A stretch of DNA of 64,000 nt from contig NC_053155.1 of the NCBI RefSeq assembly GCF_016835505.1, positions 74,532,088 to 74,596,087 of the forward strand, written 5' to 3'. Positions 5,201-55,257 of the stretch are shown one piece after another. Made by a program: the position numbers and the translations under genes. This DNA is from Polypterus senegalus. Lineage: Eukaryota. The notes beneath the pieces were generated by a model that saw nothing but the letters and a program-made list of their open reading frames with translations, ran no database searches and was not told the origin of the DNA. Every line of letters starts with the position of its first letter. The stretch's first letter is position 1.

Positions 5201-5308
5201 GGTTTAGAAGTTGAGCTCCCTCCTGTGCTTGCTTATACTGATCTTATCCTGCCAAAGGCAGGAAAACTATTTTCTGTGGTAGTACATCACATGGTGACCC
5301 CGAATGAG
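5201..5308 (+). CDS. rnf17: rnf17-like (Tudor-domain protein) exon; N-terminal part of an extended Tudor domain
   Basis: Acceptor ttcccaacag precedes 5201 and donor gtatgt follows 5308. Phase 0 to 0. Encodes GLEVELPPVLAYTDLILPKAGKLFSVVVHHMVTPNE. It joins in frame with the next four exons to give one continuous extended Tudor domain. The gene symbol rests on synteny with cenpj (an inference). Confidence 0.6.
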
Positions 5309-8764: not shown

Positions 8765-9635
8765 AAGGAATTCAGTTAGAACATTAGAACAATCTAGACG
8801 AGAACAGGCCATTCAGCCCAACAAAGCTCACCAGTCCTATCCACTTGTTTCCTCCAAGAAAACATCAAGTCGAGTTTTGAAAGTCCCTAACGTCTTACTG
8901 TCTACCACACTACTTGGTAGCTTATTCCAAGTGTCTGTCTATCTTTGTGTAAAGAAAAACTTCCTAATGTTTGTGCGAAATTTACCCTTAACAAGTTTCC
9001 AACTGTGTCCCCGTGTTCTTGATGAACTCATTTTGAAATAACAGTCTTGATCCACTGTACTAATTCCCTTCATAATTTTAAACACTTCAATCATGTCACC
9101 TCTTAATCTTCTTTTGCTTAAACTGTAAAGGCTCAGCTCTTTTAATCTTTCCTCATAATTCAACCCCTGTAGACCTGGAATCAGCCTAGTCGCTCTTCTC
9201 TGGACCTTTTCTAGTGCTGCTATGTCCTTTTTGTAGCCTGGAGACCAAAACTGCACACAGTACTCAAGATGAGGCCTCACCAGTGCATTTATAAAGGTTG
9301 AGCATATCCTCCTTGGATTTGTACTCCACAGATCGTGCTATATAACCTAACATTCTGTTAGCCTTCTTAATGGCTTCTGAACACTGTTGGGAAGTTGATA
9401 GCTTAGAGTCCACTATGACTCCTAAATCCTTCTCATAAGGTGTACTCTCAATTTTTTCCACAGAATATTTATATATAGTACTGCTACCATCTACAGCTGT
9501 GTATTTTATGGTTTTATCATGAACTGTGCTCTTGAATGACTTGAAAGGCACAATTAAATAAAATGTATTGTTATTACTGGTTTTATTTTCTGTGAAAGTG
9601 CCACTGCTGTGAAACATCCTGCATTGTTCCAGTTC
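8765..9635 (-). mobile_element. CR1-like LINE 3' fragment (second copy, inverted relative to 2900-5020)
   Basis: - strand ORFs read MRPHLEYCVQFWSPGYKKDIAALEKVQRRATRLIPGLQGL...GKFRTNIRKFFFTQR and ...EKDLGVIVDSKLSTSQQCSEAIKKANRMLGYIARS. The 3' tail is the reverse complement of 4960-5015. Confidence 0.75.
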
Positions 9636-9639
9636 CAAA

Positions 9640-13610: not shown

Positions 13611-14971
13611 CTTGAAATATTTTCAAGTCTTTTTGGTCTTTTGACATTTTTATTTGGTTCTTCTTGTTTTAGATTGTTATTATTGTTGTTATTAGTATTG
13701 CTGGGCAGTATAACCAAAATTCAACACGGTATTTTTCAAAATTATACTGGTTTCATGGTATTCGGCGGTATTTTTTTTCCCATGCATGAGTGGATGTTAA
13801 TCACATTTTTCACTGTAATTACTGCAGTAGACTGGCTAAGAATAACCTATTCCACTGTCATGATAATTATAAAAACATTTTAATGTGCACACAACTATTA
13901 AGACAGGTTTGTATGGCTCCATAAAGTGATAGTTTTCAAAGGGATGGCACTGATGAAAAGAAGGAATCGCATTGTATGACAGTTGCAGTCCAAATATATA
14001 ACCTTTTTATTGAACAAAGTCTGCAAACAACTTAAACTATAATTTTGACAACCTATTTTCAACCATCCAAAGAGGTATTTAGAGTTAGTAAAATATCCAG
14101 AGCTGCTTGTCAAAAGTTGTATTGCACGGAACATGTTTTAGAAAAGGAATAAATAGTAAATATTTTTTGTAAACCAACTACACTTTTTGTTATTGTTAAC
14201 AATCTATGTCCACTGACACATTAGCTGTCTGGATTGTAATGGCGTTGGTTGTCTTGATCCATCGCTTGCTTTTTTTGTCGTAGGCAGTACCTCTAGCAAA
14301 CGTGTCTACAAGTGACTCAAGTGTCCTCCAGCTTTTTCAGTTTAACCTAAGGACGTGGAGGGTGCCAATCTTAGTTCCATACATTCGTGGTACTCCAAAG
14401 CATGTTAAAGCGGCTAAAGTGGTGCAGTAAATTGCTTGTGTTGCCGCCTCCACCGACAACTTTAGCTCAACAGCATTTGCAGTAAATAGTTGTTTGGTTC
14501 ACACCCAACCTTTTCAAACCAAAGTATTTCCAGACAACAGACACGGCTCCTTTTTTTGGCAAAAGTTCTTCTGTGTCATCATGTTGAACTTTATCGTCTA
14601 CTACAGGTTCGGTTTTGGAATGCTCTCTGTCCATTTTCACTGCACAATACCTCCACTAACGCATGTACTCCGTTGCATGCATGTTTAGCAGTGTAGCAGT
14701 GAAAAAGGTCCCCTCTTAAACAGTTTACTGCTGCGCCACGTTCTGAACATTGTTTAGGCTATTTAAACTGGTGTTACGGTATAAGAAAACTCCATATCAT
14801 AACAAAAATAAAAAACGGTTTTCAGTATGATCCCGTATACCTCCCAGCACTAGTTATTAGTATTATTTCACTAGCAAAATACCCGCGCTTCGCAGCGGCG
14901 AAATACTGCCTTAAAATTTTTATTAAGAAGAAAATTAAACCTTTTTAAACTGTGGGAAAATATACCAATAA

Positions 14972-15163
14972 TTATTTGTTAAGGATCTCTTTGTATACCA
15001 CATTGTCAGTTCGGCCCTCCGGTTGTAATATGACCAAGCTGTGCACTGAGCTTACTCTTGAGCATGCAACGTACAGTTGGCCATGTGAAAAGTAATCTTG
15101 TCTCAAATCACACAGCTTGGATTGCTGAGTCATAATCAGTTTGAGTTTCATGGTTTGTTCCAA
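14972..15163 (-). pseudogene. Helitron Rep/Hel helicase C-terminal fragment (Pif1-like)
   Basis: - strand ORF ...MTQQSKLCDLRQDYFSHGQLYVACSRVSSVHSLVIL...NVVYKEILN. The GQLYVA(C/L)SRV and NVVY motifs are the conserved C-terminus of Pif1/Helitron helicases. Confidence 0.55.
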
Positions 15164-15515
15164 TTACGACAGTATTTGCAGGACTTGTGTTGAAGTGACA
15201 TTCGGCATCTGTCAAGCGTTGTAAGCATACAACCGGTTTCATCGATAACTTCACATCCAGCTTTTGAGAGTTTAAACATTCATAAACAAAGTGTCAACTA
15301 CTGAAATTGTCACCTGTGAATCTAAGATGTTTAAGAGGCATTGGCGGTTGTCAAAAGGAGTAAAATATTTGGCCATTTCGGTACACTTGAAAGCGACAAC
15401 CAAACAATTCAGCGGCAGCCATCACCTCACATGCAGAGCCATAGGTGAAGGGCTTAAACATTTCACTCTTATAGTACTCCTGTGTAGTATAATTATCTCC
15501 TGTACCGTCATCAGT

Positions 15516-15740
15516 CTACACCTTGAACCTGTCCCAGTCATTCAATACATAAGACACAATGTTCCTCCGGATATCAAGAGTGAGCCTGAAATGGCCGTGC
15601 AATATGTAACAAAGAGAATGGAAAAGACAGGCAGCATCTCCGGACATGGAAATCACTCGGTAAGTGACAGCTCTTTGATCGATGGTGATCACCTTGATAG
15701 ACATGTTAATGGGGGTACGGTTGGAACGATAAAGGAACAA
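15516..15740 (-). pseudogene. OTU-like cysteine protease domain fragment (Helitron-associated)
   Basis: - strand ORF ...VISMSGDAACLFHSLCYILHGHFRLTLDIRRNIVSYVLNDWDRF. The GD(G/A)xCLFH(S/A)L catalytic-Cys motif plus the downstream (I/L)Rxx(I/V)xxY...N pattern define the OTU family. OTU domains are known in some animal Helitron Rep/Hel proteins. Confidence 0.5.
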
Positions 15741-17523
15741 TGTAAAGTAAGTCTAAAATACCTACACAATAACTATAATCGTAATAAAAGAACAATAAAA
15801 CAGCGGAGAAGCCGTGGATTAAATAAAAAGGCTGTATTTATCAGTAGGGAGACGTGAATCCCGTGGCGAAGCAAGGAAGGGAATGTAGAGACCGGCGACG
15901 GACAGCCTTATATAGGCAGGCAGCCAACAACGTGGGAGGCGTTGGGATGGGGGACCCAACACCGCCCCTCACAGTGACCGAGCTGCAGGCTATGGACGTA
16001 TATATGTACGCAAGTAGGATTCAGTTAGCGTTGGGAACCCGCGTACCAAATTTCTTGAAGATGGGCCCATAAGTAACAAAGACTGTTGGAAAGTTCAATA
16101 TGGCAACCGACAGTGGCGTCATACCACCAAAATAAGTACGTACATTGGTTTCGGTTAGCGCAGGGAAGCTGCCTACCAAATTTTGTGAAGATGGGGCCAT
16201 AAATAAGAAAGTTCAACATGGTGGACGTTGTCGACCGTTATGACCGTTACATGTTTCGAATTGAAACCTGCTTAAAGTTTGTAAGTAAGCTGTAAGGAAT
16301 AAGCCTGCCAAATTTCAGCCTTCTACATACATGGGAAGTTGGAGAGTGAGTGAGTCAGTGAGGGCTTTGCCTTTTATTAGTATAGATTTATAGAAGCATT
16401 TCAAGGCACTCAGGGACACCTTACAAAACACATTAATAGTAATATTTACAATATAGAATAAATAAAAAAAATTACAGTTGAAATAAAACCAGTTCATTGT
16501 AATTAAATGTATCAACTAAAATTTATATCGAACAAATTAAGCAAGCTTAAAAAGCTGTGTTATAAGGTGAGATTTAAAGATATGAAGAAAGTCGTTGTTA
16601 TGGGGGTTTTAAGGGAGAGAATTCCAGAGAGTCTTGAGTTTTTGTTCTGTTTCTTGGTTTTGGAGATTTAGCTTTGGGATTTTGGTCCTGTCTTGATATC
16701 CAATGTGTTTTATTCACTTGTCTTTATTAAATAATAATAATATAATGCATTTTTTGTTATGTTTCTTTTGGGCTAAGGTTTATGGTTCCTTTCTCATATG
16801 TGTAGACCTAAGCCTTGTTTTGAGTTTTTTTGTAGGCTTGTTTGAAGTTGTGGATTCTGAATCATAACAATGCCCATATTACTTAACCACTGATATGAAG
16901 TGGAGTGCTAGTTTTCCTTTCACTTCTAACCATGGAAATCTTATACCTAAAATTGAATACAGTTAGAAAAGAAAGCCAATTCTGGGATTATTGTCTATAT
17001 TTGCACATTTTCTGCCTTTGGGCAGTGAGGCTTTGACAGCAGGTTATAAACTTTTAGAAATAGCTTTGTAACATTTCTAGATTGCTAGATGTTTAGTTTT
17101 TTTCTTGGCCTGTGATTTGTCAGGTTTAATAGAATGTTAAGACCCCAAATATTTTGGATACACATATTTGGCAAGATTGCTTTTTTTTTTTTTTTTGCAA
17201 TAGTGTACCTTAATAATTTCTTTTAACTTATTTACTTCACAGCAGGTTGAATGAAGTACAAAAAATATTGTCATGCTGGATCTCTGTATGTTTGCTTGAC
17301 TAATTTGCACATCATACAGATTAAAGAAACAATCTTAGCATTCTTTTCCTCCTTTCACTCAGTTTATATTGATTATCAAACCATTTAAAACATCTGAAAA
17401 AATTAACGTAAACTTAGCTTGGTAGGCTGCCAAATTGCATTACACACATCTGCTTAATGTTTTAATGGTATTAATATTTAAACAGTCATTATGGATTTTT
17501 TTCCTTTTTTTCTGTTATTACAG

Positions 17524-17662
17524 GTGCTCCTTGTCTCGCTCAATATAGTGATGGGAAATACTACTTTAGAGCTGAGATGATAAAAGTTTTGAATCTCAGC
17601 CCAGTAAAGGTTCTAGTTAAACATGTTGACTATGGTTCTTCTGCAATCTTGATCACCAGCAG
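17524..17662 (+). CDS. rnf17: rnf17-like exon (Tudor domain core)
   Basis: Acceptor tgttattacag and donor gtatag. Phase 1 to 2. Encodes (G)APCLAQYSDGKYYFRAEMIKVLNLSPVKVLVKHVDYGSSAILITS(R). The C.A.YS.DG.(W/Y)YRA....V.....V.(F/H)(I/V)DYG...(V/I)L pattern is the canonical Tudor core. Confidence 0.7.
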
Positions 17663-18257
17663 GTATAGAAGAGCATCCTGTTTTGTTTCATACTTTTATA
17701 TCATTGTTAAGATGATGTACAGTATATTTGGTGCTAATCATATTTATACATTTTTTCTCACAGAATATAAACTAGACATGTTTTTCTTTTAATTACAACG
17801 CACATTGTTCTAGATTTTGATTGTTGATTTTTGTAAACTTAAAATTTTAGAGTTTTCCAAAAATATTAATTTATCAGTTATTTTTTAAATGCAATTTATA
17901 TTTTATCTGTACATGCCCAAACCATTTAACATGGTTGAGTGTACATATCTAAATTATAATTAACCCATTTATGCCTAAGGAGTTTGTGCATGAAATTCAC
18001 ATATGTTGCGTAGAAAAATATAAGGAATAAGAATTTAAAGAGAAAAAAAAATGATTACATTCCATTGTGGAGTTATGTGGCGTTCCAAAATTGGAAAACT
18101 AGGCAAATCCACTTCTTACATTATGCATAACATATAAAATTACCTGATTGTCGTTCCAGTAATGGAACACGAGGCATTAATGGGTTAAATACTTAAGCAC
18201 TTTCAGTTAATATATGGTAGAAAATCATGCACCTTTTATGTTACATTTATTTTTCAG

Positions 18258-18447
18258 ACTTCGGCAAATCCCAGCTGAGCTTATGAAATACCCACGTCAG
18301 GCAGTCAAGGTAATATTGGGAGGATTTAAGCCTCTTCAAAATGATCTTGAATCTGAAAGAATTCTTTACAAGCCTGAATGGAGTATGAAAGCACTGTGGG
18401 CTATGATGGATTTATTGCAGAGTAAAACATTGCAAGCTCAGATTGTG
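18258..18447 (+). CDS. rnf17: rnf17-like exon (Tudor domain, C-terminal extension)
   Basis: Acceptor atttatttttcag and donor gtaggt. Phase 2 to 0. Encodes (R)[63 protein letters not shown]. This is the extended-Tudor pattern L..LP.....P.QA..C.L.G.KP....W.... Confidence 0.65.
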
Positions 18448-19984
18448 GTAGGTTTTCAAAGGGTAACTTTTTGATTTATTGTTTATGCTAATTATAGATT
18501 ATAACTTACTTTCATTGATTTAAATTAGTCATTTGTATTTTCTATGAATAAACAAACTTACACTTGCAAATTATTTTCACTAATGTGAGTGACAGATTTT
18601 AAATACCTAAATAATTAAAATTCTCAAATTATCTTAATCCAGTTTAGAGTTGATGGGGGCTGAGGCCTATTGCAGCAGCATCTCAAAACAAATTATGACC
18701 CAGCCCTAATAAATTGTGATATGAAGCAAAGCATGATTTTATAACCAGAAAAGTACTTTTGATTCAAAGTAATACAATGCAAGACACTTGACCATAATTC
18801 ACACCTAGGGAAAATCTGCCATAAAAATAAGGGCTATTTAAAATAAGTATTTAAACCACAATTTTAATGGGGAACATTTCAAAGGCATTACCAAATATGG
18901 TGGTTGTGCATTCATCTGAATGGCATCGTAAGCTATATAAACAAAGCTCAGTAGACAAACAGAATGGATACAAGTAGCCACACCTCTTTGTGAAATGGCA
19001 GTTGAGATGTAGAGAAGCTGCTGCCTAGACTAAACTGCTCAGCTGTGCAGACCACACACAGAACCCAATCAGCTGAAAGCAGTTTTGATCTGATTGGCAG
19101 CTATTTCTAGTCTGACGAGTCACCTGTGGAATTGTTGGTCACCAGCTGCGAACCTGCAACATTTTCTTTTCAAAGACATGCTCAGATATAGCTTCTTATT
19201 GCTTTGAACCAACAAGATTTTTTTTCTGCTGCTGTGCACAAGAGCATCTTTGATGTTTCTGCAAACATTGCACTTCCTAGTGATGTCAGCTAAGCACCCA
19301 GTCAGCTTCCACTCTGTGTACCACATCACTGGACTACCCATAGTGCAAATGCTTTTTGGAAATCAGTTTTTCCATTCTAGTATTCCCCTGTGGGATCACA
19401 GATCTCCATCCACAAATATATAATGTTTGGATTACAAAAACACTCTCAGAAACAGTAAGGTAGCTACAGCTATGCTGAGCACACAGAAGCCAAAAACTGG
19501 AACATGGGATGGTGTGGCTGGTTGAGAACACAGGACAAGTTGGTTATCTGTACCAAACATCAGGAAATGGTTTTCAGTAACCAGTCTTTCAGGTAGCTGG
19601 ATGACTGGTGGTCAATAACTACAGTAGCTTATCCCCACCTTTTATGGATTGTTGCAGTCTTTGATTTTTCACAGAGGTTCCATAGAGTCATTTCCTCTGT
19701 TCCTGAATAATATTGATCTTCACAGGGTAGCAGTGGGGTATTGGTACTAGTGGCATAGGAGGGGATGGAGGGGTCATCTTTTAATTGCATACATGTTTTT
19801 TCTGTATTTTTTCCACTTATTTTCCTAATAAAATATTGCCTAAAAATGGAAAATGTGTATTAAACAGTCAAACCCTATTGGAGAGTTCGTCACTGGATAG
19901 ACAAAATAAGGACAACGTATTTGGCGGGAGGGGTGTTTGAAACCCCCTAGACTCAATTAGACACAGTTCTCCCTTGCCTCAATT

Positions 19985-20944
19985 GAGGTCAGTGTTCACG
20001 ACTCCACCATAAGAAAGAGACTGGGCAAAAACGGCCTGCCTGGCAGATTTCCAAGACGCAAACCACTGTTAAGCAAAAAGAACATTAGGGCTCATCTCAA
20101 TTTTGCTAAGAAACATCTCAATGATTGCCAAGACTTTTGGGAAAATACCTTGTGGACTGATGAGACAAAAGTTGAACTTTTTAGAAGGCAAATGTCCCGT
20201 TACATCTGGCGTAAAAGGAACACAGCATTTCAGAAAAAGAACATCATACCAACAGTAAAACATGGTGGTGGTAGTGTGATGGTCTGGGGTTGTTTTGCTG
20301 CTTCAGGACCTGGAAGGCTTGCTGTGATAGATGGAACCATGAATTCTACTGTCTACCAAAAAATCCAGAAGGAGAATGTCCAGCCATCTGTTCGTCAACT
20401 CAAGCTGAAGCGATCTTGGGTGCTGCAACAGGACAATGACCCAAAACATACCAGCAAATCCACCTCTGAATGGCTGAAGAAAAACAAAATGAAGACTTTG
20501 GAGTGGCGTAGTCAAAGTCCTGACCTGAATCCAATTGAGATGCTATGGCATGACCTTAAAAAGGCGGTTCATGCTAGAAAACCCTCAAATAAAGCTGAAT
20601 TACAACAATTCTGCAAAGATGAGTGGGCCAAAATTCCTCCAGAGCGCTGTAAAAGACTCATTGCAAGTTATTGCAAACGCTTGATTGCAGTTATTGCTGC
20701 TAAGGGTGGCCCAACCAGTTATTAGGTTCAGGGGGCAATTACTTTTTCACACAGGGCCATGTAGGTTTGGATTTTTTTTTCTCCCTAAATAATAAAAACC
20801 ATCATTTAAAAACTGCATTTTGTGTTTACTTGCGTTATATTTGACTAATGGTTAAATGTGTTTGATGATCAGAAGCATTTTGTGTGACAAACATGCAAAA
20901 GAATAAGAAATCAGGAAGGGGGCAAATAGTTTTTCACACCACTG
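19985..20944 (+). mobile_element. Tc1-like transposon, 5'-truncated (DD34E-type transposase C-terminal two thirds plus 3' terminal inverted repeat)
   Basis: Translation reads ...RKPLLSKKNIRAHLNFAKKHL...LWTDETKVELF...VKHGGGSVMVWGCF...LQQDNDPKHTSKSTSEWLKKNKMKTLEWRSQSPDLNPIEMLW...AAKGGPTSY*. The 3' terminal inverted repeat is ggaagggggcaaatagtttttcacaccactg followed by TA (reverse complement tacagtggtgtgaaaaactatttgcccccttcc). The N-terminal DNA-binding region is missing. Confidence 0.75.
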
Positions 20945-20946
20945 TA

Positions 20947-22372
20947 AGTATTCACAGCCTTTGCCATGAAGCTCAGAATTGAGCTCAGGTGCATCTTGTT
21001 TCCCCTGATCATCCTTGAGATGTTTCTGCAGCTTAACTGGAGTCCACCTGTGGTAAATTCAGTTGATTGGACATGATTTGGAAAGGCACACGCCTGTCTA
21101 TATAAGGTCCCACAGTTGACAGTTCATGTCAGAGCACAAACCAAGTATGAAGTCAAAGGAATTGTCTGTAGACCTCTCAAGACCGGATTGTCTCGAATCT
21201 GGGGGAGGTTACAGAAAAATTTCTGCTGCTTTGAAGGTCCCAATGAGCACAGTGGCCTCCATCATCTGTAAGTGGATGAAGTTCGAAACCACCAGGACTC
21301 TTCCTAGAGCTGGCCGGCCATCTAAACTGAGCGATCTGGGGAGAGGGGCCTTAGTCAGGGAGGTGACCAAGAACCTGATGGTCACTCTGTCAGAGCTCCA
21401 GAGGTCCTCTGTGGAGAGAGGAGAACCTTCCAGAAGGACAACCATCTCTGCAGCAATCCACCAATCAGGCCCGTATGGTAGAGTGGCCAGACGGAAGCCA
21501 CTCCTTAGTAAAAGGCACATGGCAGCCCGCCTGGAGTTTGTCAAAAGGCACCTGAAGGACTCTCAGACCATGAGAAACAAAATTCTCTGGTCTGATGAGA
21601 CAAAGATTGAACACTTTGGTGTGAATGCCAGGCATCACGTTTGGAGGAAACCAGGCACCATCCCTACAGAGAAGCATGGTGGTGGCAGCATTATGCTGTG
21701 GGGATGTTTTTCAGCAGCAGGAACTGGGAGACTAGTCAGGATAAAGGGAAATATGACTGCAGCAATGTACAGAGACATCCTGGATGAAAACCTGCTCCAG
21801 AGCGCTCTTGACCTCAGACTGGGGCGACGGTTCATCTTTCAGCAGGTCAACGACCCTAAGCACACAACCAAGATGTCAAAGGAGTGGCTTCAGGACAACT
21901 CTGTGAATGTCCTTGAGTGGCCCAGCCAGAGCCCAGACTTGAATCCGATTGAACATCTCTGGAGAGATCTTAAAATGGCTGTGCACCGACGCTTCCCATC
22001 CAACCTGATGGAGCTTGAGAGATGCTGCAAAGAGGAATGAGTGAAACTGGCCAAGGATAGGTGTGCCAAGCTTGTGGCATCATATTCAAAAAGACTTGAG
22101 GCTGTAATTGCTGCCAAAGGTGTATCAACAAAGTATTGAGCAAAGGCTGTGAATACTTATGTACATGTGATTTCTCAGTTTTTTTTATTTTGAATAAATT
22201 TGCAAAAAAAATCAAGTAAACTTTTTTCACATTGTCATTATGGGGTGTTGTGTGTAGAATTCTGAGGGAAAAAATGAATTTAATCCATTTTGGAATAAGG
22301 CTATAACATAACAAAATGTGGAAAAAGTGATGCGCTGTGAATGCTTTCTGGATACACTGTAGATGGGCATTG
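20947..22372 (+). mobile_element. Tc1-like transposon (fish Tc1 family), near full length with a truncated 5' terminal inverted repeat; transposase disabled
   Basis: The 5' leader ...ctgtctatataaggtcccacagttgacagttcatgtcagagcacaaaccaagtATG is typical of fish Tc1. The ORF 21126-22040 (304 aa) is followed by a stop, then a further ~35 aa (...KLVASYSKRLEAVIAAKGVSTKY). The conserved QQDNDPKH reads QQVNDPKH: GAC to GTC replaces the second catalytic Asp with Val. The 3' end is ...gctgtgaatgctttctggatacactgTA. The 5' end begins agtattcacagcc, so about 15 bp of terminal inverted repeat are missing. Confidence 0.8.
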
Positions 22373-22439
22373 CATAACAGGAACAAGACTCGGCAGGATA
22401 CAAGTACTAAACAGGTGTGGATCAGTGAGACACCGGTAG

Positions 22440-22905
22440 CTTAAAGGAACAAAAAAAAAAATTCATGCTACTGAAAAATGGCCACCTAAGAACAAAACCC
22501 TAAAAACCCTGATTTAGGCTTTTCCTGAAAATCTTCATTGGTCTACAATTCTTGGTCCCTAACAATATTAGCAAAACTAAAACCTAGGGTACTGTGGTGC
22601 AGAGTCTTCCAAGTTTCTACAGTAAGAGAAACTGTACTCCACATGTTTTATTTTAACACTGTAAAAGTAAAAATCATAACCAGAGAGAGTTATTACAACC
22701 CAATGACTGCTTTGTTTGAGTCAATCAAGGAGAAAAGACGAGGAAAACTGAAAGCAGGCGTGCTGCTTCTTCACGACAATGCAGCGGTTGACATGTCACA
22801 TCAATTACAGGCTACCATCGGTGAATGTGGGTTTTAGCAGCTGAACCATCCACCCTATAATCCTGACCTGGCTCCCTCAGATTATTTCAAGTGATGAAGA
22901 TGTTG
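22440..22905 (+). mobile_element. mariner (DD34D-type) transposase C-terminal fragment
   Basis: ORF ...ITRESYYNPMTALFESIKEKRRGKLKAGVLLLHDNAAVDMSHQLQATIGECGF*QLNHPPYNPDLAPSDYFK contains the classic mariner motifs LLHDNA...H and HPPYSPDLAPSDY(F/H). It directly abuts the 3' end of the Tc1 at 22372. Confidence 0.6.
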
Positions 22906-23769
22906 TTGACGCGGGTTCAAAGAGAGAAGACAGCAGAGGATAGACAGTGTTTGTTGAATCAATACATACCTTTATTCTTTATGATTCTTGATGAGTAGAG
23001 AGACATCGCAGCGCCTGTCAGTTCAGGACTCAGCGCCAGCAGAATCTCTCGTTCCTCTTTTCTTACAGCCTTTATAAGTCAGCTGTCACGTACACATCAT
23101 GCCAACACCCTGAGTAACAGACATATAGCTTAGATAAGGCATCACTTCTAGCTTAAAATTTAAGCAAGCATTTTTGATTAGTAATGAGTCACAAGACTCT
23201 TCCTTAAAGCGTGCATTTTTAAAGATTATATTATGGGTGAACTTTATATGTGAAGAAGTAATTTGTCATCTTTGTGATTAGGCCGACTTCCCTTTATCTT
23301 TTGTGACATGCTGTTCTTGTTTTCTGCGTACTGGCTTATTTGCATGTTCAAGGGTGCAACTGGCATTAAAGGAATGTTACACCCAAGAATTTAGGGAACA
23401 GGATAAGAGAAAGAAATTATACTGTCTTTTAAACTACATCTTTGTTCATAATAATTTCTTTTTTCCACAATGTCAAGGCAGCTGTGATGTCCTGGTTTGA
23501 AGGTCAAACACAAGATTTTTTTCCCAAAGGGTTTGTCATTGCATGAAAAGTGGATGAACTGTGTGGAACTATCAGTGGACTATATTAAAAAAATAAAACA
23601 AAATTTTTTTTTTTAAAACTCTTTTCTTTCCTATGAGGTAGATAAATTACTTAATGCCGCTTGTAATATTACCCCACTAGGACTACTTATGCATAAGTAA
23701 AATATGTTTTGGTGCATTATTTGAATGATAGGGTTTATTAATTATGTGTGCAAATTGTCTGTTTTGTAG

Positions 23770-23862
23770 TCACAGGATGAAAAAGTTACAGTACACTTGT
23801 TTGAAAATGGAAGTCTCATTCATGAAACGTTTGTCAAAAATGGTTACGCAGAATATATTTAG
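23770..23862 (+). CDS. rnf17: rnf17-like terminal coding exon (Tudor domain C-terminus, then stop)
   Basis: Acceptor gttttgtag. Phase 0, in frame with the previous exon. Encodes SQDEKVTVHLFENGSLIHETFVKNGYAEYI* (TAG at 23860-23862). V.L.D......N..LV..G.A is the usual Tudor C-terminal pattern. A consensus donor CAG|gtaagt sits 10 nt after the stop (23872/23873). Confidence 0.55.
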   Translation, partial: SQDEKVTVHLFENGSLIHETFVKNGYAEYI

Positions 23863-24289
23863 TGTTTGCAGGTAAGTAGGTCTTGTCTTTCTTTCTTTGA
23901 TTGTTAAATGTTGTATATAAAGCACATACAGAAGGTCATTAGTCAATATTTTTAACTTCAAATCAGTACTTTATTTCTTCCAAGTTATGATCCAAATCCT
24001 TTATTCTGAACTTAAAATGTATTGTATGTTTGTGTGTGAATTTTTTTTTGTTTATTTTAAGGTGCTTTCATTGTATTTAAATATCCAATATGCTACATAA
24101 AGTAAATATTGGATTGAATTGCTAATGCTGCCAACATTAGCATTTTAACACAGCTTCTCACAGCACTATCCTAACATTCAGCGTTTCAGAAAATTTGAAC
24201 AGCCACACTAAATGTGCTTTATTTTAGCAGAGTATCCATCAATTTACAATAGGACTGTTTCTGTATATTACCAAAGTGGTCACAAATAA

Positions 24290-24660
24290 TAATGTCACGC
24301 CGCACTGAAGTAGTAATTCATGCAAAAGGAGCCCCGACCAAGTGTTGAGTGCATACATGGACGTACTTTTCAATAGGCCAACATTTCTGCATTAAAAATC
24401 AATTTGTAATATGTAATATTGTAATATGTAACCACTTATGTTATATTCTAATTTTCTAAGATGCTGAATTTTGAGTTTTCATTACCTGTAGGCCATAATC
24501 AGCAAAAAGAAAAGAAGTAAACTCTTGAAATATATCACTCTGTGTGTAATGAATCTATATAATATATGACTTTCACTTTTTGAATTGAACTACTGAAATA
24601 ACTTTTCGATGAAATTCCAATTTATTGAGATGTACCTGTATACTGTAAAATCATATCTTA
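24290..24660 (+). mobile_element. possible Tc1-like 3'-terminal fragment
   Basis: gcaaaaggagccccgaccaagtgttgagtgc reads AKGAPTKC*, resembling the ...AAKGGxTKY* Tc1 transposase C-terminus. The fragment ends ...cctgtatactgTA. The call is weak. Confidence 0.25.
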
Positions 24661-26199
24661 GTTTGATTTTAGATAGATATTTTATTAATCCCAAGGGGAA
24701 ATTCACATACTCCAGCAGCAGCATACTGATAAAGAACAATATTAAATTAAAGAGTGATAACAATGAAGGTATAACAGGCAGACAATAATTTTGTATAATA
24801 TTAACGTTTACCCACCCCCGACCCCGGGGGGAATTGGACAGTGACAGCAGTCTGTTGGGGACTGTAATTTAAGCCTACATGTTACATGATACTGATAGTA
24901 TTAAATGGCTCTTTTCTATTTTAAACATATTTCTTCCAAAACAGATTTCTGACATTCAAACATTTTTGTAAATCTGTGTTACAAATACATAGTAAAGTGC
25001 TCTGATTTGGTACATGATAATATCAATTCAGAACCTTTAGACATCCAAGAAGTCATGTCTTAAATGACAAGAAATTGTCCAGATCATTTGGTTTCCTCTG
25101 TGACCCCTCAGTAGGATCAGCAGAGTAACATAAATTAAAATATTATTTAGTTTATATTCTATGTAGCCTTAAATTTTAATTTTTAAAGTGCTCTAAATTT
25201 TTGCAATAAGTCTCTTATCCATCCTGTTAAGTTTTATATTTATGGTAAAACATGCATTTTGGTGTTGTGCCCGCTTAGTGGCATTCACGTTTCTGTTTTT
25301 ATAATAGAATAAACAACACACTGGATCTTCTTGTTGTCAATTCCATGTGCACTTGAGTTACTACTCCGTTTAGGCATCACCCTCACTGGCACTCAAAGTA
25401 CAAAAAGTATCATGAAAAACTCGACTCTAAGACTAAATAAAAAAGCAAGACAATAACCTTAACAGATCTAAAAAATGAAACATTAAAAAAGAAGTGATAT
25501 AAAGACATAAACTGTTGATTAAAGTAAATAATAATCGATAGAGTAGAAAGTATAAATATTGTCTCTGAATATTGGCTGAGGAACAGAACAGACTGTGTAT
25601 GGTAAGCCAAACTAACAGAAATAATAAGAGTATAGAATCTGGCCCCAGAAACACATGCCTTTCTGACAATGGATAGGAAAATGTTGTTCATTAATTAAAA
25701 CATACTGAGGCTCTCCACACCCTGCCAGATGTTTTGCTATATTCCATTTTCATTTTTTACTGATATTTGCTCTGTTTTGTAGTTAAGTATATGGTTTGTG
25801 CCAAGACTAATACCTAAAATAAATTGGTTTAGAGAGATGAGCCTTGGTCAGTTTAAAAATATTATTCACTAGCAAAATACCAAGGCCATGGAGAAGTAGT
25901 GTGTTAAAGAAGTTATGAAAAAGAAAAAGAAACATTTTAAAAATAACGTAACATGATTGTCAATGTAATTGTTTTGTCACTGTTATGAGTGTTGCTGTCA
26001 TCAAGGATTTGATTATCATTATTTCTTTCAGTCAGGTTCATATTCGGAGGATGTGTTGTATTCATATTCAAGTTATATTCCGTGTTTGTCAACCGTTGTA
26101 AAGATAACAGGTTTCATTCATCGAAGTGAGCAATACCCAAATCGGTACTCGTGAATCTAAGATGTTTAACAGGCATTCCCGGTATTAAGTTGTGGATTT

Positions 26200-26940
26200 G
26201 CTTGGGAATATTTAGCGGTAGCGTGTCTATGAACTTAATTTAACCTTTCCCAGTCCTGCAAAGTCAGTTCATGTGAGCCGCTCGGAGTACATGCATCAAA
26301 GCTTCTGAGCTGTGCTTGTGCTATCTCGTTCGATCTTGCGATGTCCATGGCTTTATTTAATGTTAGCTCAGACCCAGCACTTAAAAGTTTCTCTCGCACT
26401 TTTGTTGAGTTTGTGCCAAACACTATTCTATCCCTGACCATCTTATCTTCGTTTGCATAAGCACAGTCCTTCACCTACAACTTTAATTCCGCTACAAAGT
26501 GCTGAAAAGTCTCGTTTATACCCTGCGTCCTCTCAGTAAACTTGTATCTTGTGAATATCGTATTTGTCTTAGGCATGACAAACGCCAGTGGCAGTGTGTC
26601 TATGAACCTAATTTAAAGTTAAGCTTTACACCCTGCTTTCCTATTCGTTTGCATAAGCACAGTCCTTCACCAGCAATTATAACTCCGTTACAGCAATTGT
26701 AACTCTGTTACAAAGTGATTAAAAGTCTCGTTTATACCCTGCGTGTTCTCATTAAACTTGTATCTCGCGAATATTGTATTCGTCGTAGGCATGACAAATG
26801 CCAGTGGCATGCCTGTCTATGAACCTAAATTAAACTTAAGCTTTACACCTTGCTTTCCTATTGATATGTGTACAAAGGCTTGTTCAGCGTCAGAGGGTTT
26901 CCGCAGTAGCTGCACTTATGAATATGCTAAGCACAGTCCT
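26200..26940. repeat. tandem array of ~217-bp units (about 2.5-3 copies)
   Basis: Unit 26490-26706 (caaagtgctgaaaagtctcgtttataccctgcgtcctctcagtaaacttgtatcttgtgaatatcgtatttgtcttaggcatgacaaacgccagtggcagtgtgtctatgaacctaatttaaagttaagctttacaccctgctttcctattcgtttgcataagcacagtccttcacc...) repeats at 26707-26925 at roughly 85% identity. Partial unit pieces lie at 26200-26235 and 26445-26490. Confidence 0.6.
26235..26474 (-). pseudogene. retrotransposon gag-like fragment inside Helitron-like copy B
   Basis: - strand ORF ...MVRDRIVFGTNSTKVREKLLSAGSELTLNKAMDIARSNEIAQAQLRSF. The (R/K)DR(I/L)V.G......EKLL.E.DLTL.KA..IAR..E pattern recurs in gag/polyprotein leaders of LTR-type retroelements in animals. Confidence 0.35.
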
Positions 26941-27589
26941 TCACCTGCGAATATTTATCTTATATGGGCAGGCACTCAATAACGTGGGAGGCCTGATGAT
27001 GCGGGACGCAACTCCGCCTCACACGGCGACCGAGCTGCTGGCTGTAGCCGTATATATGGATGAAAGTAGGTTCCAGTTATGACCATTACGCATAGAATTT
27101 CGAAATGAAACCTGCCTAACTTTTGTAAGTAAGCTGTAAGGAATGAGCCTGCCAAATTTCAGCCTTCTACCTACACGGGAAGTTGGAGAATTAGTGATGA
27201 GTGAGTGAGTCAGTGAGTGAGTGAGGGCTTTGCCTTTTATTAGTATAGATAATATGTGGTCTGTGGTGAAGATGTTAACATTAGGTTGTTTTCTTATTCC
27301 TTTCCCATTAGTTTTATTCTTTTCTCAGCTTGTGTTCTGCAGGTAATGTATCTTTGCTGGGATGAAGAGTGTTGATTCTTTCATCATTTTGGGATTAATG
27401 TGTTCAGCTGGGAGTCATAACTCCACTCATAGAAAATGCACTACAGAATAATAATAGTAATATATTTTATTTATATATTACAATGGAGGAAAAATCACCA
27501 CCAACACAACAACGATTACGACACAAATTTATTTTTATTACATGCGTTAAAGGTTCAGTCAGCCAGGTTCATGTCAGGCAGTGGTTGTA

Positions 27590-27990
27590 CGATACAATAC
27601 AATACAATACAATACAGTTTATTTTTGTATAGCCCAAAATCACACAGGAAGTGCCGCAATGGGCTTTAACAGGCCCTGCCTCTTGACAGCCCCCCAGCCT
27701 TGACTCTCTGAGAAGACAAGGAAAAACTCCCAAAAAAACCTTGTAGGGAAAAATGGAAGAAACCCTGGGAAAGGCAGTTCAAAGAGAGACCCCTTTCCAG
27801 GTAGGTTGGGCGTGCAGTGGGTGTCAAAAGAAGGGGGTCAATACAATACACAGAACAGAACAAATCCTTAATACAGCAAAACAAAAATAATAAAATATTT
27901 AGAAGTACGGAGCAGAATTTAACAGTAGATGATACTGCCTCCTCAGCACTGTTCTCCCCCCAATCTCTGTGCAATACAACATGAAACTGA
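27590..27990 (+). repeat. (ACAAT)n microsatellite followed by an unclassified teleost interspersed repeat
   Basis: acaatacaatacaatacaatacaatac, then ...gtatagcccaaaatcacacaggaagtgccgcaatgggctttaacaggccctgcc...aaggaaaaactcccaaaaaaaccttgtagggaaaaatggaagaaaccctggg. I recognise this string as a widespread teleost repeat, but that is recall, not a search result. Confidence 0.35.
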
Positions 27991-32811: not shown

Positions 32812-35800
32812 ACATTTTAAATTTATTCTCCATCCATCCTCTTCCGCTTATACGAGGTCGGGTCACAGGGGCAGCAGCTTGAGCAGTGATGCCCAGACTT
32901 CCCACTCCCCGGCCACTTCTTCTGGGGGAATCCCAAGTCGTTCCCAAGCCATCCAGGAGACGTAATCCCTCCAGCGTGTCCTGGGTCTTTCTCGAGGCCT
33001 CCTCCTGGTTGGACGTGCCCGGAACACCTCACCAGGGAGACGTCCAGGAGGCATCCTGATCAGATGCTCGAGCCACCTCATTTGACTTCTCTCGATGCGG
33101 AGGAGCAGCAACTTTACTCTGAGCCCCTCCTGGATGACTGAGCTTCTCACCCTATCTTTAAGGGAAAGCCCAGACACCCTGTGGAGGAAACTCATTTCAG
33201 CCACTTGTATTTGCGATCTTGTTCTTTCAGTCACTACCCATATAGCTCATGACCATAGGTGAGGGTAGGAACGTAGATCGACTGGTAAATTGTGAGTTTT
33301 GCCTTACGGCTCAGCTCCTTTTTCACCACGACAGACCGATGCAGAGCTTGCATCACTGCGGACGCCGCACCGATCCACCTGTCAAGCTCACGCTCCATTC
33401 TTCCCTCACTCGTGAACAAGATCCCGAGATACTTGAACTCCTCCACTTGGGCACGATCTCGCTCCCAACCCTGAGAGGGCACTCCACCCTTTTCCGGCTG
33501 AGGACCATGGTCTTGGATTTGGAGGTGCTGATTCCCATCCCATCCGCTTCACACTCAGCTGTGAACCGATCCAGAGAGGGCTGAAGATCACGGCTTGATG
33601 AAGCAAACAGGACATCATCATCTGCATAAAGCAGTGACCCAATCCTGAGTCCACCAAACCGGACCCCCTCAACACCCTGGCTGCGCCCAGAAATTCTGTC
33701 CATAAAAGTTATGAACAGAATCGGTGACAAAGGGCAGCCCTGGTGGAGTCCAACTCTTACTGGAAACGGGTTTGACTTACTGCCGGCAATGCGGACCAAG
33801 CTCTGACACCAGTTGTACAGGGACCGAACAGCTCTTATCAGGGGGCCTGGTACCCCATACTCTCAGAGTTACACAAACCCCTTCCCAGCCCCAGGATTCC
33901 CTGAGGAACACAGTCGAACATCTTTTCCAAGTCCACAAAATGTGCAGACTCATTGGGAAAACTCCCATGCACCCTCCAGGACCCTGCTAAGGGTGTAGAG
34001 CTGGTCCATTGTTCCACGACCAGGACGAAAACCACACTGTTCCTCCTGAATCTGAGGTTCGACTATCTGATGGACCCACCACTCCAGGACCCCCGAATAG
34101 ACTTTGCAGGGAGGCTGAGGAGTGTGATCCCTCTGTAGTTGAAACACACCCTCTGGTCCCCCATCTTAAAGAGGGGGACCACCATCCCGGTCTGCCAGTC
34201 CAGAGGCACTGTCCCCGATGTCCATGCGATGTTGCAGAGGCGTGTCAACCAAGACAGTCCTACAACATCCAGAGCCTTGAGGATCTCATCCACCCATGGG
34301 GCCCTGCCACCAAGGAGTTTTTTGACCACCTCGGTGACCTTAGCCCCAGAGATGGGGGAGCCCACCTCCAAGTCCCCAGGCTCTGCTACCTCATTGGAAG
34401 GCATGTTAGTGGGATTGAGGAGGTCTTTGTAGTACTCCCCCCCACCGACCCACAACGTCATGAGTCGAGGTCAGCAGCGCACCATCCCCACCATATACAG
34501 TGTTGATACTGCACTACTTTTCCCCCTCCTGAGACACCGGATGGTGGACCAGAATCTCCTCGAAGCCGTCTGAAAGTCGTTCTCCATGGCCTCCCCAAAC
34601 TACTCCCATGCCCAAGTTTTTGCCTCAGCAACCACCAAAGCCACATTCCACTTGGCCTGCCAGTACCTATCAGCTGCCTCTAGAGTCCCACAGGACAAAA
34701 GCTTCTTCAGCTTGACGGCATCCCTCGCCACCGGTGTCCACCAATGGATTCGGGGATTGCCGCCACGCCAGGCACCGACCACCTTACAGCCACAGCTCCG
34801 GTCAGCCGCCTCAACAATAGAGGCACGGAACATGGCTCATTCGAACTCAATATCCCCCACCTCCCTCGGGATATGGTCGAAGTTCTGCCGGAGGTGGGAG
34901 TTGAAGCTGCTTCTAAAAGGGGACTCTGCCAGATGTTCCCAGCAGACACTCACAGCACGTTTGGGCCTACCAGACCTGACCGGCATTCAACCCCACCATC
35001 AAAGCCAACTCACCACCAGGTGGTGATCAGTTGACAGCAATGTTCCCTCTAAGGAGTAGCATATAGTGAGCAAAAAACATTGTTTATGAGCGACATTTTG
35101 TTTAAGCCAAAAATTTATGAGCACCAATCTTTGCGCCAAGTACGAGCAATGCCGTCGGAATGAGTGATCGTGCAGGAAGTATGAGCGACGCTCTGAATTC
35201 CCTCACACGCTCAGCTTAGAGGGAACATTGGTTGACAGCTCTGCCCCTCTCTTCACCAGAGTGTCCAAGACATGTGACCGCAAGTCCGATGACACGACCA
35301 CAAAGTCGATCATCGAACTGAGGCCTAGGCTGTCCTGGTGCCAAGTGCACATATGAACACCCCTATGCTTGAACATTGTGTTCGTTATGGACAATCCGTG
35401 ATGAGCACAGAAGTCCAATAACAAAACACCGCTCGGGTTCAGATCGGGGGGCCATTCCTCCCAATCATGCCCTTCCAGGTTTCACTGTCATTGTCCACGT
35501 TAGCATTGAAGTCTCCCAGCAGTACGAGGGAGTCCCCAGAAGGTATACCTTCTAGCACCCCCTCCAGGGACTCCAAAAAGGCTGGGTACTCCAAACTCCA
35601 TTCGGCGCATACACACACACACAACAGTTAGGACCCATCCCCCCATCCGAAGGCGTAGGGAGGCTACCCTCTCGTCCACCAGGGTAAACCCCAATGAGCA
35701 GGTTCCAAGTTGGGGGGTAATAAGTATGCCCACACCCGCTCAGCGCCTCTCACTGGGGACAACTCCAGTGTGGTAGAGAGTCCAGCCCCTCTCAAGGAGA

Positions 35801-54938: not shown

Positions 54939-55257
54939 AGATAGCCAGGTTGTATACATTTGTAAATTTTATAACAGTGCCACTAGTGGGTTCAAATGGT
55001 CCATCACTTTAAAAACATATTTAAAAAATTATAGGCACAATAACAATGGATGTATCATGTTTTTACTACCTTATTCAAATTTTAGGTATTCATTAAATGT
55101 ATTAAAAGATAAGGTACTCTGAATTTGAAATATGCACACTATACAAACATTTCAATTATATACCGGACTTTGTAGCCAGGAAAAGTCTTCACCATCATTT
55201 CTCAGATTTTATTACATTATGATACAGTAGTGTATTTATAAAAACATTCTTTCTAAC

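Follow-up and report, generated by a model that had tools for sequence, protein, structure and literature searches.

The window analyzed here, a stretch of 64,000 nucleotides from the genome of the bichir Polypterus senegalus, carries two related elements on the minus strand, which we refer to as copy A (1516 bp) and copy B (1381 bp). Separated by 9.5 kb and oriented alike, both run antisense to an RNF17-like gene, and they sit on either side of two of its exons (17520-17663 and 18256-18438, plus strand) that encode a Tudor domain (Pfam E=3e-11). The two exons correspond to the C-terminal end of human RNF17, so that they are the last exons of the gene. An earlier sequence-only reading had called them exons 3-5, which is incorrect. 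The features of the two copies, with the basis for each, are as follows.

14871..16386, minus: copy A, read as an internally deleted, non-autonomous canonical Helitron (limits of similarity to copy B; A|TC...CTAG|T)
14871..14971, minus: right terminal sequence (RTS) of copy A, with hairpin CCGCtGCGAAGCGCGG at 14883-14898, a 12-nt spacer and CTAG-3′ at 14871-14874 (sequence, folding, layout of relatives)
14972..15170, minus: remnant of a Pif1-like helicase C-terminus in copy A (..DLRQDYFSHGQLYVACSRV..VVYKEILNK), stop codon at 14972-14974 (bichir helicase matches)
15171..15289, minus: linker downstream of the OTU in copy A (..YECLNSQKLDVKLSMKPVVCLQRLTDAECHFNTSPANTVVI..), boundaries approximate (contiguous with OTU in P0001, P0002, P0004, P0008, and P0017)
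15290..15704, minus: remnant of an OTU cysteine protease in copy A, inner boundary 15290 approximate and set by eye (translation, Pfam, matches to bichir proteins and L007)
15907..16386, minus: left terminal sequence (LTS) of copy A, from 5′-TCTATACTAATAAAAGG to the TATA box CCTATATAAGG (81% identity to the copy B LTS)
25869..27249, minus: copy B, read as a non-autonomous Helitron of a related subfamily (comparison with copy A; segments recurring at other bichir loci)
25869..25942, minus: RTS of copy B, its last 13 nt those of copy A, CTAG-3′ at 25869-25872, decayed hairpin region CTCCATGGCCTTGG (alignment, folding)
25928..26183, minus: remnant of the OTU C-terminus in copy B (..PVKHLRFTSTDLGIAHFD..) and a diverged linker (protein and DNA alignment)
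26169..26909, minus: foreign insert in copy B, a gag-like retrotransposon fragment in sense orientation, partly tandemly duplicated (protein matches, tblastn extents)
26955..27249, minus: LTS of copy B, with TATA-like CCCATATAAGA at 26958-26968 (alignment to the copy A LTS)

Termini and flanks of the two copies

The sequence-only reading had proposed two non-autonomous Helitrons, oriented alike and bounded by A|TC...CTAG|T junctions, and its coordinates, ends, and flanks for both copies (A, 14871-16386; B, 25869-27249) proved exact on the minus strand. Read on that strand, both copies take the form A|TCTATACTAATAAAAGGCAAAGCCCTCACT ... GGTATTTTGCTAG|T, with a host A on the 5′ side and a host T on the 3′ side, and they have their initial 30 nt (TCTATACTAATAAAAGG...) and final 13 nt (GGTATTTTGCTAG) in common. 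Across the window there are exactly two occurrences of the 22-nt 5′ terminus (0 expected by chance) and two of the 17-nt 3′ junction. We set the ends of the elements where the similarity between the two copies stops, which is at the TC and CTAG ends, the flanks being unrelated past ~10 nt; these boundaries are based on two copies from the bichir genome and on cross-species comparisons of the RTS. Flanking direct target-site duplications, which the earlier reading had named as evidence that would count against it, were looked for, and none was found abutting either copy. Inverted repeats at the termini are not significant in either copy (shuffling gives p=0.88 for copy A and 0.058 for copy B).

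At the left end, where ~300 bp were said to be shared, 236 of 291 aligned nucleotides are indeed identical (81%). The similarity stops at a TATA box (CCTATATAAGG, 15907-15917, in copy A; CCCATATAAGA, 26958-26968, in copy B), which is probably the element's own promoter. The left end of copy A carries ~205 additional nt, among them a 130-bp tandem duplication (16002-16081, 16132-16211). The 3′ side is also similar, but a contiguous 300 bp of shared sequence, as previously described, overstates what is a patchy resemblance: blastn pairs 14861-14949 with 25860-25942 (72%) and 15277-15348 with 26115-26183 (75%) and finds no other matches, and a gapped alignment gives 230 identical columns among 349 aligned. 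The motif gtgaatctaagatgtttaa, reported as common to both copies, is present in each and is coding sequence of the OTU C-terminus (..KHLRFT..).

The RTS of copy A, ~100 nt long, follows the helicase stop codon. Its sub-terminal GC hairpin (CCGC-t-GC-GAA-GC-GCGG, 14883-14898), separated from the 3′ end by 12 nt, is real but small (-5.3 kcal/mol), and has no stability advantage over shuffled controls (z = +0.45 for one choice of folded stretch and -0.33 for another). The corresponding region of copy B, to which the earlier reading had assigned only a short palindrome, folds at -0.4 kcal/mol and yields no usable hairpin. The same layout, in which a hairpin is followed by 10-13 nt and GCTAG|T, is found in four non-bichir contigs (L002, L003, L005, and L006) that carry related helicase genes, with unrelated AT-rich flank beyond GCTAG|T. 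The fourth pair of the outer stem, C-G in copy A, is T-A in L002 and L006. Save for the decayed hairpin of copy B, the structural features looked for in the two copies were all found.

Coding remnants and foreign DNA

Copy A keeps the TATA box, start codon, OTU, linker, the last ~60 helicase codons, the stop, and the 100-nt right end. Its OTU has an initiator Met at 15704, the catalytic-Cys motif GDAACLFHS, and a disrupted His motif; with a frameshift and in-frame stops, it is a pseudogene. Decayed as it is, it matches Pfam OTU at E=0.004, is 80-90% identical in amino acids to intact bichir copies (~40 gene-model exons), and is 35% identical (E=2e-30) to the N-terminus of ORF1 of the Helitron L007, with the same initiator Met. 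The helicase remnant is 81% identical to the C-terminus of P0028, a bichir “PIF1 helicase” model, and is matched by 20 helicase proteins; taken alone, it matches Pif1-family chains at E=0.002-0.1. P0034, a bichir helicase model that shares this C-terminus, matches Helraiser (7lcc) at E=1.5e-54, compared with 1e-12 for cellular Pif1. The helicase ORF of copy A is not followed by an endonuclease domain and closes only 100 nt short of where the element stops. Both the OTU and the helicase pieces had been described as captured; both are present, but they are what is left of the transposase ORF of the element itself, which in L007 runs OTU, Zn-finger-like region, Rep, and Hel.

The gag-like fragment of copy B (~740 bp) has protein matches with E-values down to 4e-30, among them a “Retrotransposon gag domain-containing” protein from Mytilus, and is the only foreign DNA in that copy. 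Its tandem repeat pairs 26448-26645 with 26644-26862 (80% identical; unit ~200-217 bp). The gag fragment and repeats had thus been recognized correctly; in addition, remnants of the OTU C-terminus and linker survive in copy B. No helicase piece was found in copy B. Its OTU-linker segment is 30-36% identical in amino acids to P0001, P0002, P0003, P0004, P0008, and P0017, and so low a similarity between the OTU-linker remnants as protein points to different subfamilies for the two copies. Segments of the copy B type recur at other bichir loci (P0002 N-terminus, 93%; P0175, 90%).

Family membership and alternative readings

One search finds the OTU ORF in 38 P. senegalus gene models, and another finds it in further models, at 76-95% identity. 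With dozens of such models, this is a multicopy family at the protein level. At least five of them (P0001, P0002, P0004, P0008, and P0017) cross the junction between OTU-linker and helicase remnant seen in copy A, and the recurrence of that junction indicates that the deletion derivative was itself amplified. The autonomous relative, L007, has the order OTU, Zn-finger-like region, Rep, and Hel; the same order, with OTU upstream of RepHel, is found in P0250 and P0178. L007 is 70% identical to the bichir family at the helicase C-terminus and 35% in the OTU; from the bichir family itself no Rep was recovered. The Rep of L007 carries the Helitron-type VEWQKRGLPHIH signature (GLPH) and matches the Helraiser Rep at E=1e-108, and no endonuclease domain was called on its contig. 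G-L-P-H in Rep is diagnostic of Helitrons, and G-S-P-H of Helentrons (PMC4067079). The composition of L007, the absence of a called endonuclease, and the RTS layout of the relatives therefore point to canonical Helitrons (HLE1) and not to Helentrons. We consider it highly probable that both copies are fossil non-autonomous members of one OTU-bearing canonical Helitron (Helitron1/HLE1) family, or of two sister subfamilies, the HLE1 Rep signature being read in L007.

Among known systems, the family resembles the bat HLE1 elements Helibat1 and Helraiser in its 5′-TC and CTAG-3′ ends, A|T integration, a small palindrome close to the 3′ end (11-12 nt upstream), a RepHel transposase in which the helicase forms the end of the protein, and abundant non-autonomous deletion derivatives, some with captured foreign DNA. 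In Helraiser itself, a palindrome lies 11 nt away from the terminal CTAG, integration is at AT, and AT-rich 3′ flanks are preferred (PMC4778049). Unlike these elements, the bichir family has an N-terminal OTU protease domain on its transposase, family-specific terminal sequences, and a shorter hairpin (a GCGAAGC core in a 4-bp outer stem, compared with the 19-bp palindrome of Helraiser). The OTU-bearing HLE1 variants found with HELIANO share both the OTU before RepHel and the canonical HLE1 ends, in a paper that does not mention polypterids (Li et al., NAR 2024, PMC11417382). A horizontally transferred Helitron, Heli1Xen1-b, has been described in P. senegalus and Erpetoichthys (Li & Pollet 2025, PMC12001565), and shares with our copies the host group, TC...CTAG ends of the canonical type, and a wealth of non-autonomous copies. 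However, the RTS hairpin CCCGTTA...TAACGGG and the TATATAAA-rich LTS of Heli1Xen1 are both absent from copies A and B, that paper makes no reference to an OTU domain, and Heli1Xen1 copies are young (0.58-10.7 My; PMC12001565), whereas copies A and B are strongly decayed. Among Heli1Xen1 hosts, 81-100% identity would be expected, whereas the closest non-bichir relatives of P0034 (in Rhinatrema and aphids) are 64-68% identical over most of their length; P0029, a shorter freshwater-metagenome fragment, is 83% identical to P0034 over 61% of the query. The Helitron copies described here are ordinary repeat content, and the family is of a known kind.

Similarity between the two copies continues for ~10 nt past CTAG (TGAAATAATA in copy A and TGAATAATAT in copy B, with TGAA(A)TAATA in common), so the family end could lie ~10 nt further out, or there could be a target preference. 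If the true 3′ end were at least ~10 nt beyond CTAG, CTAG|T would be internal and the copies would derive from a master copy with a read-through or de novo end, of the CTAG-bypass kind documented for Helibat and Helraiser (PMC4778049). The anchored-prefix test (p ~0.011-0.015) favors this. However, local alignment of the 30-nt flanks gives p=0.15, the preference of Helraiser for AT-rich 3′ flanks (PMC4778049) would inflate chance similarity, and the four related elements of other hosts stop at GCTAG, followed by T and unrelated AT-rich sequence, so that we regard an end further out as unlikely. The proximity and common orientation of the copies, together with these weakly similar 3′ flanks, might also suggest a local segmental duplication or the pieces of one rearranged element. 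Yet LTS and RTS are both complete in either copy, the flanks of the copies are unrelated past ~10 nt, the breakpoints of their internal deletions and their contents differ, and the low identity of their OTU-linker remnants indicates different subfamilies. A single origin is accordingly exceedingly improbable, and two independent insertions are supported.

It is also very unlikely that the copies belong to HLE2 (Helentron/Helitron2) as non-autonomous elements like HINEs or DINE-1, with T-T insertion, short TIRs, and a terminal stem-loop. Helentrons belong to the same rolling-circle superfamily, frequently carry OTU ORFs, and have non-autonomous copies with internal tandem repeats (PMC4067079), as copy B does; OTU domains were long held to be specific to HLE2 (PMC4067079). 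However, elements in which an OTU precedes RepHel are now known from HLE1 and HLE2 alike (PMC11417382), and the repeat of copy B is a duplicated gag fragment and not a HINE-type central repeat. The T|T targets, subterminal inverted repeats, terminal stem-loop, and AP-endonuclease fusion of Helentrons were not found in copies A and B, where the 5′ flanking base is A, inverted termini are not significant, the hairpin of copy A stands 12 nt inside the CTAG end, and the helicase ORF ends, without an endonuclease domain, just 100 nt from the element end. The Rep of the autonomous relative is also G-L-P-H, not G-S-P-H.

Proposed origin of the copies

Under the preferred reading as HLE1 Helitrons, the progenitor would have encoded an OTU protease, a Zn-finger-like region, an HUH Rep nuclease, and a Pif1-like helicase in one protein, flanked by a ~290-nt LTS with its own TATA promoter and a ~100-nt RTS. 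Copy A could then have arisen by an internal deletion from just past the OTU linker to the last ~60 helicase codons, and copy B by a larger loss, with the ~740-bp gag fragment, either captured in the course of transposition or inserted later, now in place of the segment from the promoter to the OTU C-terminus. By analogy with the Helraiser model, each copy would have been mobilized in trans by the RepHel of an autonomous copy: Rep would nick at the 5′-TC of the LTS, the helicase would unwind 5′ to 3′, and the small hairpin of the RTS, 12 nt upstream of the terminus, would mark the second cut, after CTAG. The resulting single-stranded circle would insert into AT-rich DNA between an A and a T of the host, and the target would not be duplicated. 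Given the stops and frameshifts in their ORFs, the loss of the hairpin in copy B, and LTSs that differ by 19%, both copies are now dead.

Termini, flanks and shared sequence of the two elements

The sequence-only reading had placed two elements on the same strand, each with A|TC...CTAG|T junctions, and this is borne out by the exact termini and the A and T flanks. On the minus strand, copy A (from 16386) and copy B (from 27249) both start with A|TCTATACTAATAAAAGGCAAAGCCCTCACT. The 5′ ends (TCTATACTAATAAAAGG...), with their TC start, are identical over the first 30 nt, and similarity between the copies stops at the TC. The 3′ ends read ...GGTATTTTGCTAG|T (copy A to 14871, copy B to 25869), in which CTAG is of the CTRR type; the last 30 nt of the element are CGCCGCTGCGAAGCGCGGGTATTTTGCTAG. 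Searching the 64-kb window gave exactly two occurrences of the 22-nt 5′ terminus, which never appeared in shuffles, and likewise two of the 17-nt 3′ junction. In both copies, the flanking base is A on the 5′ side and T on the 3′ side. Flanking direct target-site duplications, which that reading had named as pointing to a different repeat class, were looked for and none abuts either copy, the only matches being non-abutting, AT-rich and 4-5 nt long. The best inverted match between the ends was not significant (p=0.88 for A and 0.058 for B). Transposons with terminal inverted repeats or target-site duplications were rejected on these two counts. Empty sites would be predicted to read as follows, with an intact A|T:

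Predicted empty sites
Copy A: ...TTCTATAAA|TGAAATAATAC...
Copy B: ...ACATATTA|TGAATAATATT...

Past CTAG, both 3′ flanks carry TGAA(A)TAATA (TGAATAATA), a weak similarity of ~10 nt that gave p=0.011-0.015 as an anchored prefix under AT-rich nulls, and on this ground the true 3′ end of the family might be placed ~10 nt beyond CTAG. We consider such an end very improbable, given that local alignment of the 30-nt 3′ flanks reached only p=0.15, that the related right terminal sequences (RTSs) on four contigs from other sources (L002, L003, L005, and L006) all terminate at GCTAG|T, and that the bat canonical Helitron, Helraiser, strongly favours AT-rich sequence on the 3′ side when it integrates (PMC4778049). 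Target preference or chance is therefore the favoured explanation for the similarity after CTAG. Segmental duplication was also rejected as the origin of the two copies, because the flanks beyond ~10 nt are unrelated and the internal breakpoints differ.

When each copy was compared with the window by blastn, only the other copy matched, in four blocks. Two of these cover the 5′ ~290 nt (80-81% identity), the third (75% identity) is 72 nt long and includes the motif gtgaatctaagatgtttaa, and the fourth (72% identity) lies at the 3′ end and is 89 nt long. MAFFT alignment of the 5′ parts gave 236 identical positions out of 291, with the similarity ending at a TATA box in each copy. On the 3′ side, an alignment requires large gaps, with identity in 230 of 349 aligned columns. 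Thus, the ~300 bp said to be shared at the 5′ end stand, but the 3′ figure of ~300 bp reduces to patchy similarity with two short blastn blocks. The left terminal sequence (LTS) of copy A contains ~205 extra nt, made up of a 130-bp tandem duplication.

Features of the left terminal sequences
15907-15917 (-): TATA box of copy A, CCTATATAAGG, where 5′ similarity to copy B ends
26958-26968 (-): TATA box of copy B, CCCATATAAGA, where 5′ similarity to copy A ends
16002-16081 and 16132-16211 (-): 130-bp tandem duplication in the LTS of copy A

Within the duplication, an ORF-like motif is repeated (GPIFKKFGTRVP and GPIFTKFGRQLP), and a degenerate third copy is found nearer the 5′ end; the motif, GPIFxKFG, had no meaningful match in Pfam.

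Coding remnants and foreign sequence

Coding sequence of the following kinds was recognized in the two copies:

Coding remnants of copies A and B
15290-15704 (-): OTU domain of copy A, found by translation, starting at the Met codon at 15704 (MSIKVITIDQRAVTYRVISMSGDAACLFHSLCYILHGH...) and interrupted by a frameshift and in-frame stops
(-): linker of copy A, ~45 codons long, following the OTU domain
Stop at 14972-14974 (-): Pif1-type helicase C-terminus of copy A, last ~60 codons, in another frame, ending ...DLRQDYFSHGQLYVACSRVSSVHSLVILQPEGRTDNVVYKEILNK before the stop
26183-25928 (-): OTU C-terminus and diverged linker of copy B, ...PVKHLRFTSTDLGIAHFD, found by protein and DNA alignment

Pfam gave a weak OTU match on the decayed copy A (E=0.004) and did not recognize its 63-aa helicase remnant. 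The helicase stop lies 100 nt before the end of the element, and two related proteins, P0028 and P0031, end at the same helicase position. P0028 (81% identical to the remnant) and P0034 are bichir helicase fragments with the C-terminus of copy A; P0034 matched the Helraiser transposase (PDB 7lcc) with E=1.5e-54, compared with 1e-12 for cellular Pif1.

In at least five gene models (P0001, P0002, P0004, P0008, and P0017), the OTU domain is followed by the linker and then by ...ETNHETQTDYDSSNPSCE. This last stretch maps to 15160-15123, where it overlaps the start of the helicase remnant in another frame (helicase matches reach 15157), and the five loci therefore share the deletion junction of copy A. 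The deletion derivative represented by copy A has itself multiplied through the genome.

The OTU and linker remnant of copy B has 30-36% protein identity to copy-A-type sequence, and alignment with copy A revealed no helicase piece in copy B. From the TATA box to the OTU remnant, copy B instead holds ~740 bp that match retrotransposon Gag proteins (E down to 4e-30, 59-67% identity), among them one with the name "Retrotransposon gag domain-containing". A tandem repeat with a unit of ~200-217 bp makes up the N-terminal part of the fragment, so that both the gag-like fragment and the ~217-bp repeats first read from the sequence were recovered. Pfam did not recognize the fragment. Segments of the copy B type are found elsewhere in the bichir genome, at the N-terminus of P0002 (93%) and in P0175 (90%). 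The OTU and helicase pieces of copy A had likewise been taken for captured sequence; they are indeed present, but as the element's own coding remnants, and the foreign DNA in the two copies is confined to the gag fragment.

Relatives, right terminal hairpin and class assignment

On a Logan contig (L007, SRR32897439, 1-5704) lies an almost complete autonomous Helitron of the OTU-Rep-Hel type that is related to the bichir family; its order is OTU, Zn-finger-like region, Rep with VEWQKRGLPHIH, and helicase, although gene calls split it over four ORFs. ORF1 begins with an OTU domain whose homology to that of the bichir starts at the initial Met (35% identity, E=2e-30), the Rep matched Helraiser with E=1e-108, the helicase C-terminus is 70% identical to the copy A remnant, and no endonuclease domain was called on the contig. 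The contig, also recorded as L004, stops short of the RTS and has no recognizable TC start at its 5′ end. Without exception, the 120 best homologues found for the bichir helicase are helicase-only models, with no Rep among them. An exhaustive, profile-free OTU search returned P0250, which combines OTU with Helitron_like_N (E=9e-39), and P0178, which combines OTU with the Helitron N-terminal Zn-finger-like region.

Several contigs from other sources that carry related helicase genes extend past the helicase stop, and in L002, L003, L005, and L006 the region after the stop finishes with a hairpin, 10-13 nt, and GCTAG|T, after which the sequence is unrelated and AT-rich.

Right terminal hairpins
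14883-14898 (-): copy A, CCGCTGCGAAGCGCGG, CCGC-t-GC-GAA-GC-GCGG, then a 12-nt spacer and CTAG
L003, 1682-1695: hairpin of relative
L006, 2283-2298: hairpin of relative
L002, 1750-1765: hairpin of relative

The copy A hairpin has a 6-bp bulged stem (-5.3 kcal/mol, no better than shuffled sequence), and the corresponding region of copy B is decayed (-0.4 kcal/mol) and offers no usable hairpin. The T-GCGAAGC core of copy A is the same in L003, with the variants GTGAAGC in L006 and GCGAACC in L002. The outer stem, CCGC...GCGG in copy A, is CCGT...ACGG in L006 and L002, a single compensatory pair (C-G to T-A). The GCGAAGC heptamer has been described as an unusually stable DNA mini-hairpin. In this analysis, the strongest evidence for CTAG as the probable true terminus, and for a hairpin that would be functional in the family, comes from this conservation across species.

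In canonical Helitrons (HLE1), the ends are of the form TC...CTRR, with a hairpin shortly before the 3′ end, and insertion is at A|T; Helitron2 elements (HLE2) insert at T|T and are bounded by inverted termini of 11-18 nt, with a stem-loop at the terminus (PMC11417382). Helentrons are a kind of HLE2 with an additional C-terminal endonuclease, and the Rep signature is G-L-P-H in Helitrons and G-S-P-H in Helentrons (PMC4067079). An OTU domain upstream of RepHel in HLE1 was first recognized in 2024 (PMC11417382). Unlike the T|T target of HLE2, the 5′ flanking base of copies A and B is A; unlike the terminal stem-loop, the copy A hairpin is separated from CTAG by its spacer; and unlike Helentrons with their C-terminal AP-endonuclease, the copy A helicase frame runs to its stop without an endonuclease domain. 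HLE2, including HINE, was rejected on the A flanks and the lack of significant inverted termini and of an endonuclease. Because of the A/T flanks, the absence of inverted termini and endonuclease, the RTS layout, the G-L-P-H Rep read in the relative L007, and the occurrence of OTU in HLE1, we concluded that copies A and B belong, as non-autonomous members, to an OTU-bearing family of canonical Helitrons. The original interpretation as non-autonomous Helitrons is thereby supported, with corrections as to the element's own remnants, the patchy 3′ similarity and the identity of the neighbouring exons.

The family differs from Heli1Xen1-b, a Helitron already reported in Polypterus (Li & Pollet 2025), whose published hairpin is CCCGTTA...TAACGGG, whose LTS is TATATAAA-rich and whose copies are very young (PMC12001565); here, the hairpin is CCGCTGCGAAGCGCGG and the LTS starts with TCTATACTAATAAAAGG. 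We think it unlikely that the two copies represent an undescribed OTU-bearing canonical-Helitron lineage of polypterids, with a virus-linked OTU and with a captured gag in copy B. Were this so, copy B would be a Helitron that had placed a captured gag fragment immediately downstream of the element's TATA promoter, and the link to P87/VP80 could point to virus-mediated exchange of the OTU module or of the whole transposon. The two copies are fossil repeats of a well-understood class and at most a new family member. They place a family of OTU-bearing HLE1 elements on record for a basal ray-finned fish and allow two repeats close to an RNF17-like gene to be annotated cleanly; their scientific weight is modest, with no hint in these results of a new mechanism or of an effect on the host gene.

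As a separate observation, the OTU at 15290-15704 (-) resembles the N-terminal OTU of P87/VP80 proteins (E ~1e-14 to 1e-21, 31-40% identity), and proteins with both OTU and the baculovirus capsid P87/VP80 Pfam domain include P0249, P0251, P0272, P0277, P0279, P0291, and P0220. Viral contigs searched with the helicase yielded no relatives. A freshwater metagenome contig (L001, ERZ936912) matches 15110-14956, 155 bp of the helicase remnant, at 551-705 with 85% nucleotide identity, and its similarity to copy A ends immediately past the stop codon, long before the RTS; this match could reflect fish environmental DNA or horizontal spread of the Helitron lineage. The LTS terminus had no match in IMG/VR or prokaryote genomes, and JGI metagenomes matched neither the 22-nt LTS terminus nor a conserved block of 24 nt in the LTS.

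Copies in the bichir annotation and the neighbouring genes

A protein search with the concatenated copy A pieces gave 45 matches, 38 of them "partial" P. senegalus gene models (76-94% identity), chimeras in which real host exons are joined to the transposon OTU ORF. This protein-level evidence points to dozens of family copies in P. senegalus. The deposited annotation is contaminated by the Helitron OTU ORF, which calls for caution among users in comparative genomics. At least ~40 "partial" GenBank models of the species (P0001-P0036, P0041, P0175-P0183, and others) contain the ORF at 76-95% identity, under names such as ANX10, ARTN, BODG, MCE1, TFF3, and CLPX.

Both Helitrons are antisense to the RNF17-like gene, whose Tudor-domain exons in the window are as follows:

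Tudor-domain exons of the RNF17-like gene
17520-17663 and 18256-18438 (+): exons between the copies (Pfam TUDOR, E=3e-11)
5216-5311 (+): further exon

The exons between the copies had been called rnf17-like exons 3-5. They align instead to residues ~1482-1588 of what we take to be human RNF17 and, as a lead only, would be the last, C-terminal exons.

At 55253-56824 (-), a 523-codon open exon carries a CPAP/CENPJ tubulin-binding motif (Pfam PF25779, E=3.5e-6) and probably belongs to a neighbouring CENPJ-like gene; in human, CENPJ neighbours RNF17. Rfam found no family over 14500-27600, its one sub-threshold miRNA-like match lying outside the elements. By eye, ORFs at 20150-20725, 21126-22040, and 48407-49447 (+), 525-1429 (+), 8939-9638 (-), and 32863-34461 (-) look like transposon sequence, namely fragments of LINE reverse transcriptase and transposases of the Tc1/mariner type, one of which is an open frame of 346 codons.
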